Counted from the first letter of the stretch, positions 22,051 to 23,764 are shown. The stretch: 64,000 bases of DNA from Iphione sp. A-MEVVRFRX5 (GCA_976226885.1 OZ320322.1:42222001-42286000), one strand, 5' to 3'. The notes: generated from the sequence alone by a model not told the origin. Made by a program: numbers and translations.

Positions 22051-22528
22051 TTCACCCCTTTCAGAGGCCGAGATCGACGCCTACCTGAAGAATAATCCTT
22101 TCTACGTTGGCACGGACTCTTATCAGAACCTACCCTCGCACCACGTCCCAGACAAAGATCGACCTGCCTTCTATGTCATCAATACGGACAAAGTAGGCTC
22201 ACCAGGTCTTCACTGGGTGGTTGTCTATCTGCTTCCTAACGATATCCCATGTGAATTTTTCGATTCTTTAGGGTTTACACCCGACCATTATCCAGCACGT
22301 ATTAGAAATTTTCTCCTAGCCAATTGTAACGGTGTTTACATACATGCCAAAACTAGATTACAAAGAAAAGAACCTGTATGTGGTTATTACTGTATAGATT
22401 ACATTAGAGAAAGAACGAGGGGTGTATCTTTCCTGCACTATATGGAAAGTTTGGTCCATCGTTATGAGAGATACCTAACCAATGATCGACTGGTGGTTTC
22501 AAGAGTGCGCCACCCATTCATACCATGA
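22031..22528 (+). CDS. Adenain-like cysteine maturation protease (165 aa)
   Basis: VINTD...GLHW, FFDSLG and Q....CGYYC give the H-D-Q-C catalytic set. Confidence 0.94.
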   Translation: MSRSSSSSPLSEAEIDAYLKNNPFYVGTDSYQNLPSHHVPDKDRPAFYVINTDKVGSPGLHWVVVYLLPNDIPCEFFDSLGFTPDHYPARIRNFLLANCNGVYIHAKTRLQRKEPVCGYYCIDYIRERTRGVSFLHYMESLVHRYERYLTNDRLVVSRVRHPFIP

Positions 22529-23764
22529 TTTCGTACGCTTCTTGATTGATGTTGTCTTCCCTCTCATGTGAAGAGTCTTGCACGTGTATGTCTTGCAGTC
22601 TGATTCCCTGCTAATGAGAAATAAAAAAAATTAATTATCATCTATCGTGCCATGATATGTACATGTATTATTCAAATGAGAGTGAGAAATAATAAAAATG
22701 TCTCTTAATCACTTGGTCTCTGTCTGATTTATTTATATCGATCGGTATAGGTTACTACCAATGAAAAATTAAATGATACTCACCCATAGAACCTCATTGC
22801 TTCTCGAGGATAAGGATCTCCTTCTCAATCTTCGTCTCCTTGATATTATTACGACAATCGTGACTGAGACCGAAAAAACAATAAGGACAAAGAGAATGCA
22901 ACTTACAATAATCCAAGTCAAACGGATCGAGGAATTTCTGGTGACAGAGTGTTCTGTCACTGTTGTAAAGGAAGGAGAGAACTTACTGGAAGACCATTGG
23001 GTCGGCGCAGATGACAAGATTGCAGTGGAAGAAGATGAGGATGATGGAGAAGAAAACCTAGTAATCAATCCTGCTGTAGTGATAGAAGACCAAGTGGAAG
23101 AAATAGTAGTAGTAGGAGAAAAAGTGGAAGTAGTAGTAGGAGAAGCAGAAGTAGAAGAAATAGGAGAAAACGAAGTAGTAGAAGAAGTAGACGGAGAAAA
23201 AGTAGTAGTATCAGTAGCAGTAATAGTAGTCTGAGGAGGAGGAGAAGAATTAGTACTATCAGTAGTAGTAGTAGTAGTAGTAGTAGTAGCAGTAGTAGTA
23301 GTAGCAGTAGAAGTAGAATTTGTAGCAGTGGGGGCAGTAGACATATATGTGGAGGTTTCTCGTCTAGACAAGGTTGTATATACAGTAGAAGGTGCTGACC
23401 ATGTGAGAGGTGTTGACTGATTACAATCGGATATGATGTGTACATGATTCGGAATCCCACTTAGAGAGCTACAGTCCATACTCACTAATGAGAGAGATAT
23501 ATCCAGGTATTTCAAATTTGGAAAACTGATAAAAACCCTTTCACGTACCTCACTGATCATACACAACCTCCAGTCGAGAACAGTCATGAGAGGATCGCGG
23601 AAAAAATCAATAGTGAAGGGATCAACTCTTCCTCTACAGGTCATACGGGGAGAGAAGCAAGGAGCACACAACGGGTGGCAATTATGAACAACGTGAAATG
23701 ATAGTAGTGACAGAACACCCAAGTAAATCAATGCTCCACGGAATAATTGAATACAGTATGCCAT
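22518..23764 (-). CDS. Type-I membrane glycoprotein 1: signal peptide, Cys cap, short LRR, Ser/Thr mucin stalk, TM, cytoplasmic tail (331 aa unspliced; 357 aa spliced)
   Basis: ORF 22769-23764. LRR-like VLDWRLCMISEVRERVFISFPNLKYLDIS. Predicted phase-0 intron 22783-22611 (TGG|GTGAGT ... TTTTTTTTATTTCTCATTAG|) adds QGIRLQDIHVQDSSHEREDNINQEAYEIMV*. Confidence 0.8.

Follow-up and report, generated by a model that had tools for sequence, protein, structure and literature searches.

Gene content of the element

The window, by which we mean the whole 64,000-nucleotide stretch of Iphione sp. DNA that was analysed, contains a Maverick/Polinton element whose accessory genes include a divergent pair, G1 and G2, predicted to encode small receptor-like membrane proteins. 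Its main features, in window coordinates, are as follows.

8136..32036, both strands: Maverick/Polinton element, 23.9 kb, with AGTAGT...ACTACT ends and inverted repeat I6
12264..17240, plus: large exon of the putative family-B DNA polymerase (PolB) gene, with C2H2 fingers at its start and a NADAR domain at its end
18797..19954, plus: retroviral-type integrase with chromodomain (rve 1.4e-08, above cut-off; Chromo 1.9e-08)
22031..22528, plus: adenain-like protease (Peptidase_C5 E 0.0027)
24434..26396, plus: G2, head-to-head partner of G1, with a signal-like start, Cys cap, small LRR-like head, stalk, TM and tail exon

Mavericks/Polintons are defined, in the accessible text of PMC8097293, by terminal inverted repeats with (AGT)2//(ACT)2 ends and a 6-bp target duplication, and the element at 8136..32036 has both, being flanked by the duplication ACTACG at 8130-8135 and 32037-32042. 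Its plus strand carries the polymerase, ATPase, integrase with chromodomain, small ORFs, a 446-aa putative capsid gene and the protease. The integrase is of the retroviral-like kind typical of these elements, and the protease and the packaging ATPase (Pox_A32 E 0.019) scored below curated cut-offs but lie in the expected positions. The polymerase candidate matched a DNA polymerase in PHROG (E 0.0014), and motifs that we take to be of PolB type were recognised by eye in the large plus-strand ORF; searches with the large exon gave no PolB match in Pfam and no polymerase match in the PDB. The putative major capsid protein is a conserved 446-aa ORF adjoining the protease, with zero matches in Pfam, PDB and PHROG. 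G1, on the minus strand, meets the protease tail to tail and G2 head to head. An earlier note on this DNA had read G1 as a receptor mimic and compared it with adenovirus E3 glycoproteins, and the reading of a receptor-like accessory product in an element related to adenoviruses was right: it is a Maverick/Polinton accessory gene.

Other parts of the element may also be spliced. Ahead of 12264 the polymerase gene apparently has several short 5' leader exons (11174-12263, plus) that add C2H2 fingers. A 302-aa ORF at 9726-10840 (plus), likely with a short spliced tail, matches the SOCS box (E 0.00036); it keeps the same position in clade-1 elements and was undetected in the clade-2 and clade-3 stretches examined. 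Two further accessory ORFs (28321-29100 and 29739-30485, minus) have no Pfam match, and the AT-rich right arm holds a two-copy repeat of ~185 bp at 27481-27840.

Anatomy and fold of the G1 protein

22784..23764, minus: G1 exon 1, 327 codons, encoding a predicted signal peptide, mini-LRR, stalk, TM and basic stop-transfer
23423..23680, minus: mini-LRR ectodomain, residues 29-114, with a four-Cys N-cap, two LRR strands and a reduced two-Cys C-cap
22916..23410, minus: Ser/Thr-rich mucin-like stalk, residues 119-283, 165 aa, 59% S+T
22817..22915, minus: TM helix (about residues 284-307, hydropathy 3.2) and Arg-rich stop-transfer, SRRRRLRRR

The G1 ORF (23764-22769, minus, 331 aa) contains the Cys cap, Thr/Ser stalk, TM and basic stop-transfer that had been read from the sequence before, and the type I topology they imply is right. 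The signal peptide of that description stays a prediction, made from the hydrophobic N-terminus (19-residue hydropathy 1.69) and from homologues. Cysteines stand at residues 29, 33, 36, 43, 68, 98 and 114, accompanied by four N-sequons, and the stalk differs in length by whole codons between near-identical copies of the gene.

The LRR-like ectodomain was borne out by profile and structure comparisons. Leucine-rich repeats follow the consensus LxxLxLxx(N/C/S/T)xL, and G1 has two such parallel-strand repeats, at residues 60-70 and 84-94, with Cys68 and a Ser at the ladder positions. A profile of the head matches TLR3 at 8e-14, plus other LRR proteins, and an AlphaFold model built from 49 aligned heads reached pLDDT 93.9. 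In a structure search with this model every top match was an LRR protein, aligned at its LRR N-terminus, all with Z < 8 and the best being LRIM1 (Z 7.6, rmsd 2.6 over 83 residues); with Foldseek, neither the PDB nor a viral library yielded anything at E ≤ 0.001. Pfam LRR_8 scored below cut-off (E 0.093) and was found in 22 of the 49 members at E up to 1. The four-Cys N-cap (LRRNT) is present, Cys 29/33/36/43 being invariant in 49/49 heads, with CxxC spacing in the G1 of the window and canonical CxC in the intronless clade described below. A four-Cys C-cap (LRRCT) is absent, Cys98 and Cys114 alone standing there, and G1 lacks the long LRR horseshoe and the cytoplasmic TIR domain of a Toll-like receptor, having two repeats and a predicted ~56-aa tail without TIR. 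As modelled, the G1 head resembles an extracellular LRR domain, yet it is neither a TLR nor a member of any named family.

The G2 head gave a comparable model (pLDDT 93.5), with the small GPIb-IX chains as top structural match (Z 5.7, rmsd 3.0 over 68), and the frame of G2 continues across a predicted phase-2 intron at 25585-25864. Profiles of the G1 and G2 heads align poorly with each other (probability 26.5). A binding prediction for the two proteins scored 0.00, which counts neither for nor against binding.

An old gene family linked to the element core

Searching the same genome with G1 gave 647 candidates; 150 matches were scored, and 17 of these are 94-100% identical. A second search with an outside homologue as query (123 scored of 736 candidates) revealed a further, fourth clade. 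Sixty loci were sampled across the score range of the own-genome matches: G2 stands head to head with G1 in all 60, and the protease adjoins G1 in 57, the remaining three being two rearranged loci and one gapped. G1 heads and capsid proteins sort into the same four groups, as judged from a quick capsid tree with locus L073 left out and a G1 tree of 90 columns, the roots of both being for drawing only. Locus L048 was left out of the G2 alignment, and L048 with 11 duplicate rows out of the G1 alignment.

The G1 head has a median dN/dS of 0.27 (84 pairs) and by this sequence measure is under purifying selection. Linkage to G2 and the core, groups shared with the capsid and the head dN/dS together indicate that G1 is an old, selected component of the element rather than a recent capture. 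The idea that a host receptor had been captured is not supported, no copy outside a Maverick having been seen and G1 sharing its four groups with the capsid gene; because of that sharing, any capture from a host would have to be ancient.

Relatives also exist outside this genome. A profile search of 1.84 billion proteins returned, among the best 150 matches, 13 single-domain matches to the whole head, most of which share the G1 architecture; the others among the 150 match no more than a portion of the head, mainly as several separate segments in the manner of repeat proteins. No named protein was found among the 10 of these 13 homologues that were looked up. At full length, 5 of the 13 end in [ST]-x-[VI] and 2 more in S-x-A. 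Word-indexed protein searches with G1 yielded no family member and one generic LRR protein, and scans of viral and metagenome contigs no G1 relative. The database homologues closest to the spliced clades, P0006 and P0045, end or run on with R-V-S; since R-V-S is what the usual donor AG|GTAAGT gives on read-through, both could, judging from the protein sequences, be gene models of other animals in which an intron was left in place.

Rearranged copies occur as well. In one (L021:2911-6147) the reading frame of G1 passes through the TM and then continues as the C-terminal half of the polymerase, and another (L074) lacks the genes from protease to ATPase and retains both donors and exon 3.

The first intron and exon 2

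22611..22783, minus: intron 1, phase 0, 173 nt, with a NAGNAG acceptor
22524..22610, minus: exon 2, 29 codons, acidic, ending YEIM

That a phase-0 intron follows the TM segment, as the earlier note had proposed, holds well on comparative evidence. Its donor, TGG|GTGAGT after 22784, and acceptor, TTAG|CAG at 22610, are plain in the sequence. With splice sites scored by a home-made matrix of general donor frequencies, 26 of 28 automatically picked lineages have a phase-0 site as their top donor behind the TM; of the two misses, one has a weak donor, and in the other the TM was mis-picked. Exon 2 varies from 75 to 150 nt and its length is divisible by 3 in 30/31 scored clade-1 loci (5 further loci fell outside the scoring), the sole exception being a 93-94% identical copy with a frame-breaking deletion within exon 2. 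The acceptor was chosen by the clade-1 start pattern x-[ILMF]-x-[LMF]-[QHE], so this frame test bears on the distance to the second donor. On the plus strand, intron 1 contains an AATAAA that could terminate the protease transcript.

A predicted second donor and the YEIMV end

22518..22523, minus: GTATGA, predicted second donor; the V-stop is read only upon retention of intron 2

From the acceptor at 22610, 30 codons run up to the TGA at 22518 and read YEIMV at their end, and this 30-aa tail had been taken as the end of the protein. Its codons are indeed in frame, but it is probably not the main end, since GTATGA behaves as a second donor. Across 15 clade-1 lineage rows exon 2 ends in [YNF]-E-[IV]-[IMT] and is followed by GT, and the donor has G at +5 in 15/15, a purine at +3 in 14/15 and T at +6 in 11/15. 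Peptides read through it are unrelated beyond V-[CSR].

The protease overlaps this site, its stop codon overlying the end of exon 2. Among the donor bases that are kept are third codon positions of the protease frame, and lineages in which the protease stops elsewhere still carry the motif. In clade 3 a GTAAG donor closes the last exon ahead of the protease; it lies clear of the protease ORF and is phase 0 in 5/6. Coding constraint also keeps GTRNG at some sites antisense to core genes, in up to 9/10 lineages, so the donor signature by itself is not unique. As a separate observation, in many clade-1 lineages the protease stop (22526-22528 in the window) lies opposite the last exon 2 codons, switching between TGA and TAA with the register kept.

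Alternatively, G1 might consist of two exons, with a main product that ends in YEIMV* and signals through YxxM to the SH2 domain of PI3K p85. The YEIMV-stop frame is present in the window and in 15/17 near-identical copies, and with a donor of only moderate strength such as GTATGA, intron 2 is likely to be retained to some extent. On the other side, a stop right after V and the YxxM motif each occur in 2/15 lineage rows only; the G1 strand has no AATAAA between 22518 and 14688, and neither AATAAA nor ATTAAA over 7.8 kb downstream; and the two-exon reading would account neither for the PDZ ends of intronless relatives nor for the conserved exon 3, both described below. We give the two-exon gene a slim chance, and YEIMV* is probably a retained-intron form only.

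The two functions that had been suggested for this tyrosine fared differently. The two YxxM rows are the window and its 93% sister, and because the motif is limited to this one lineage, PI3K-p85 signalling is unlikely as a conserved role of G1. A YxxPhi sorting motif is plausible: Y-E-[IV]-[IM] occurs in 9/15 clade-1 lineages and YNM[IL] in 14/14 intronless relatives, although the Tyr is replaced by Asn or Phe in 6/15 of the former.

Two candidate acceptors for a following exon were rejected. One, within the protease antisense (TACAG|TAA at 22389, with two later AGs), corresponds in reverse complement to the C-G-Y-Y-C region of the protease, and its AG is missing in many lineages. The other, at 18144, is the strongest conserved antisense acceptor in the core; it coincides with a Leu codon before K-K-E of a 108-aa ORF, and its products vary among lineages.

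A predicted third exon beyond the core genes

12206..22523, minus: predicted intron 2, 10,318 nt
12182..12205, minus: predicted exon 3, coding part, seven codons, ELHTTSI-stop, behind TTATAG
11446..11451, minus: first AATAAA downstream of exon 3

Predicted intron 2 encloses, on the opposite strand, the protease, the putative major capsid gene, the small core genes, the integrase, the ATPase and the large PolB exon. Exon 3 sits 10.3 kb from exon 2, inside a predicted plus-strand leader intron of PolB (12109-12263). The T-S-I end that it supplies, conditional on the predicted splice, has the form of a class I PDZ ligand, C-terminal S/T-x-hydrophobic as defined in PMC4810129.

A phase-0 [ST]-x-[VIL]-stop behind an acceptor was found in the PolB leader region of 12/14 clade-1 and 6/7 clade-2 lineages, the chance expectation being about 4% per 640 nt; controls in other phases, on the opposite strand and in shifted windows gave 0-2 matches each. 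The two clade-1 lineages that missed the threshold have the exon on inspection, one with a weak acceptor and the other with an extra Cys. Conservation at codon positions 1/2/3 is 0.76/0.82/0.51, the stop codons of 13 lineages are 8 TGA, 4 TAA and 1 TAG, and ELHT[TS]SI-stop is kept in all 22 DNA matches to the region (17 near-identical, 5 at 74-76% identity). Among loci fetched subsequently that have a PolB anchor, 4/6 have exon 3. Its counterpart in clade 3 is a two-codon [DE]-[VL]-stop, strong in 4/9 loci, weak in 3 (one lineage) and absent in 2, with a background of 0.3%; its ends are mostly not class I (for example H-D-V). An AATAAA lies within 1 kb after exon 2 in 2/13 lineages and after exon 3 in 11/13, a comparison confounded by the higher AT after exon 3.

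Clade 2 (L045, L052/L079 with L101, L103, L118) has a second, phase-1 reading of exon 3, also with a PDZ end, in two lineages that have a weak phase-1 GT in exon 2, and in L052 the phase-0 donor and the phase-0 end are both lost. The pattern in L052 suggests a switch of the junction.

Exon 3 could be genuine coding sequence and yet belong to another minus-strand transcript, or be trans-spliced, G1 itself ending elsewhere. Further donor-like sites are conserved antisense to PolB, and a 10-kb intron is large within a 24-kb element, both of which such an arrangement would accommodate. We nevertheless regard it as very improbable: exon 3 resembles the C-terminus of the intronless G1 relatives, its phase agrees with that of the second donor in three clades, the clade-2 lineage without a phase-0 donor is likewise without a phase-0 PDZ end, and the search antisense to the core genes turned up no further acceptor that is itself conserved and yields a conserved product. 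We therefore return to a three-exon G1, whose conserved end is probably a PDZ-binding motif on a distant third exon, and within whose intron the entire core cassette likely sits in antisense. Very probably, a leftward transcript from the promoter between G1 and G2 would lose both introns, of 173 nt and 10.3 kb, leaving a three-exon mRNA for a predicted 363-aa protein in which the YEIM of exon 2 is followed by ELHTTSI-stop of exon 3; YEIMV* would be a minor, retained-intron form.

The intronless sister clade

The fourth clade carries G1 in one piece. All 14 sampled loci (12 distinct) are intronless and end in YNM[IL]E, a short spacer and E-[ST]-x-V-stop, a tail colinear with the spliced form: its Y-x-hydrophobic-hydrophobic corresponds to exon 2, and its E-hydrophobic with the PDZ end to exon 3. 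Core genes adjoin G1 in 13/14 of these loci, and the upstream check covered those 13. G1 points away from the core in most intronless elements, whereas in the spliced clades it points into it; among loci L153-L187 with L193-L202, G1 lies on the core strand and points away in 10/10 loci checked upstream, and three loci are arranged otherwise. The simplest history would be an inversion followed by splitting of the tail, the order of events being unpolarised in an unrooted tree.

Proposed function and its alternatives

We propose that G1 is an ancient Maverick/Polinton accessory gene for a mini-LRR, mucin-stalked type I protein, made from three predicted exons of which the last lies across the antisense core, and likely acting as a PDZ-anchored adhesion protein or receptor mimic at the host surface; taken as a whole, we hold this to be reasonably probable. 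The stalk would raise the LRR head beyond the glycocalyx, the acidic Tyr-x-x-hydrophobic segment would drive adaptor sorting, and the C-terminal [ST]-x-[VIL] would bind a class I PDZ scaffold of the Dlg, MAGI or Scribble type; that all three hold jointly seems to us evenly balanced. Such anchoring would keep G1 at junctions or cell contacts, where together with G2 it might occupy a host receptor or organise the passage of the element from one cell to the next.

The same gene structure could serve a RID-like purpose, G1 (with G2) binding a host receptor in cis and removing it by endocytosis, for immune evasion or superinfection exclusion and not for adhesion. Two small type I membrane genes co-inherited in 60/60 loci, an acidic tail with Tyr-x-x-hydrophobic and juxtamembrane N/D-x-x-Y/W motifs would all suit this role, and exclusion would benefit many integrated copies. 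We think it unlikely, though worth keeping in mind: the strictly kept C-terminal PDZ motif suggests scaffold retention, Pfam shows no sequence likeness to RID, and HTLV-1 Env is endocytosed faster upon loss of its PDZ-binding motif (PBM), as reported in the accessible part of PMC4810129.

G1 and G2 might instead be attachment glycoproteins of a membrane-wrapped particle or vesicle rather than residents of the resting cell surface. Both follow the capsid gene tree, nematode Mavericks are described as bearing a membrane fusogen (10.1101/2022.07.12.499685), and class I PBMs are known on viral envelope proteins (PMC4810129), sources that we cite from their accessible parts. Within this element, however, no fusogen-like gene was recognised, and G1 runs opposite to the capsid genes, a poor fit to late co-expression; we judge a particle role improbable.

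More speculatively, the nesting of the core within intron 2 may be a device. The leftward G1 pre-mRNA would be antisense to every core gene and would terminate across the PolB leader, so that production of the surface protein and of virus could exclude each other through transcriptional interference or dsRNA; the G1/G2 promoter would then act as a latency switch of integrated Mavericks, and the PDZ-anchored mini-LRR pair would be the surface product of the latent phase, for contact sensing or exclusion. This is a doubtful proposal, and against nesting being essential, the sister clade keeps G1 intronless and mostly facing away from the core.

Under our preferred reading, that of a PDZ-anchored surface protein, several consequences follow. 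Annotation usually treats Mavericks as collections of intronless ORFs, and ORF calling therefore misplaces the C-terminus of G1 and misses the feature of it that is most conserved. Should the splice be real, polymerase, integrase and capsid genes have been kept in one antisense intron of a host-facing gene in three deep lineages, which would offer a handle on how integrated Mavericks are expressed or silenced and how they contact host cells. G1 would also define an unnamed family of viral membrane proteins with a mini-LRR and a PDZ tail, whose relatives occur in other datasets too.

Comparison with known systems

Described Mavericks/Polintons (accessible parts of PMC8097293, 10.1101/2022.07.12.499685 and PMC8502044) have accessory regions next to the core, as this element does; the element also agrees with them in its AGT/ACT termini, its 6-bp duplication and its integrase, protease and ATPase, and probably in its polymerase. 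Genes of intact vertebrate Mavericks are described as intronless (Barreat and Katzourakis 2021, PMC8097293), and those carried as cargo by nematode Mavericks, which include a fusogen, as having introns (Widen et al., 10.1101/2022.07.12.499685). The accessory classes named in these sources are PLA2X, GasderminX, Cupiennin, Oncoid, Adintoc, wasp, krma and fusogen (PMC8097293, 10.1101/2022.07.12.499685, and Starrett et al., PMC8502044, on adintoviruses); in the passages covered, which for PMC8502044 include section 3.2, no LRR membrane gene, PDZ motif or core-enclosing intron is described. A literature search, whose coverage mostly excluded subscription papers, likewise gave no description of the G1 gene, its architecture or its nesting. 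The G1/G2 pair as such belongs to a known kind of element accessory genes, and the predicted 10.3-kb core-enclosing intron with a PDZ exon on its far side is the new part.

Adenovirus UXP and E2B are, like G1, multi-exon leftward transcripts amid rightward late genes, with the UXP promoter inside the L5 coding sequence, and they encode replication-associated proteins, whereas G1 is surface receptor-like (accessible part of PMC7851563). In the present element, by contrast with adenovirus, the polymerase, integrase and capsid genes would lie within one intron, and the last exon in a leader intron of the polymerase. By analogy, we take these leftward multi-exon units as the nearest precedent for the layout. 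At the protein level, the accessory products RID and CR1 of adenovirus E3 are type I membrane proteins that carry tyrosine sorting motifs and are encoded next to structural genes. They are not known to have an LRR and offer an analogy only, G1 having no Pfam match to an E3 family at E up to 0.1, a limit that remote kinship could escape; the E3 region is credited with an immune-protective role (PMC7851563, in part).

Among cellular proteins, the small LRR chains of platelet GPIb-IX (PDB 8wfs, 3rfe) are closest to the G1 head in size (Z 6.8, rmsd 2.6 over 87 residues), a match of middling Z that is tied with many other LRRs at 15-20% identity and implies no platelet function. LRRTM proteins and Slitrk2 are, like G1, type I proteins with an extracellular LRR and a C-terminal PDZ-binding sequence; LRRTMs have ten LRRs, as against the two strands of G1 with their reduced C-cap and a Ser/Thr stalk of 165 aa, so that we point to a likeness and claim no orthology (accessible part of PMC13100631). 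HTLV-1 Env is a fusogen, unlike G1 with its lack of a fusion domain, but it presents what we predict for G1, a type I viral glycoprotein whose class I PBM binds DLG1 and sets its location at cell contacts (accessible part of PMC4810129).
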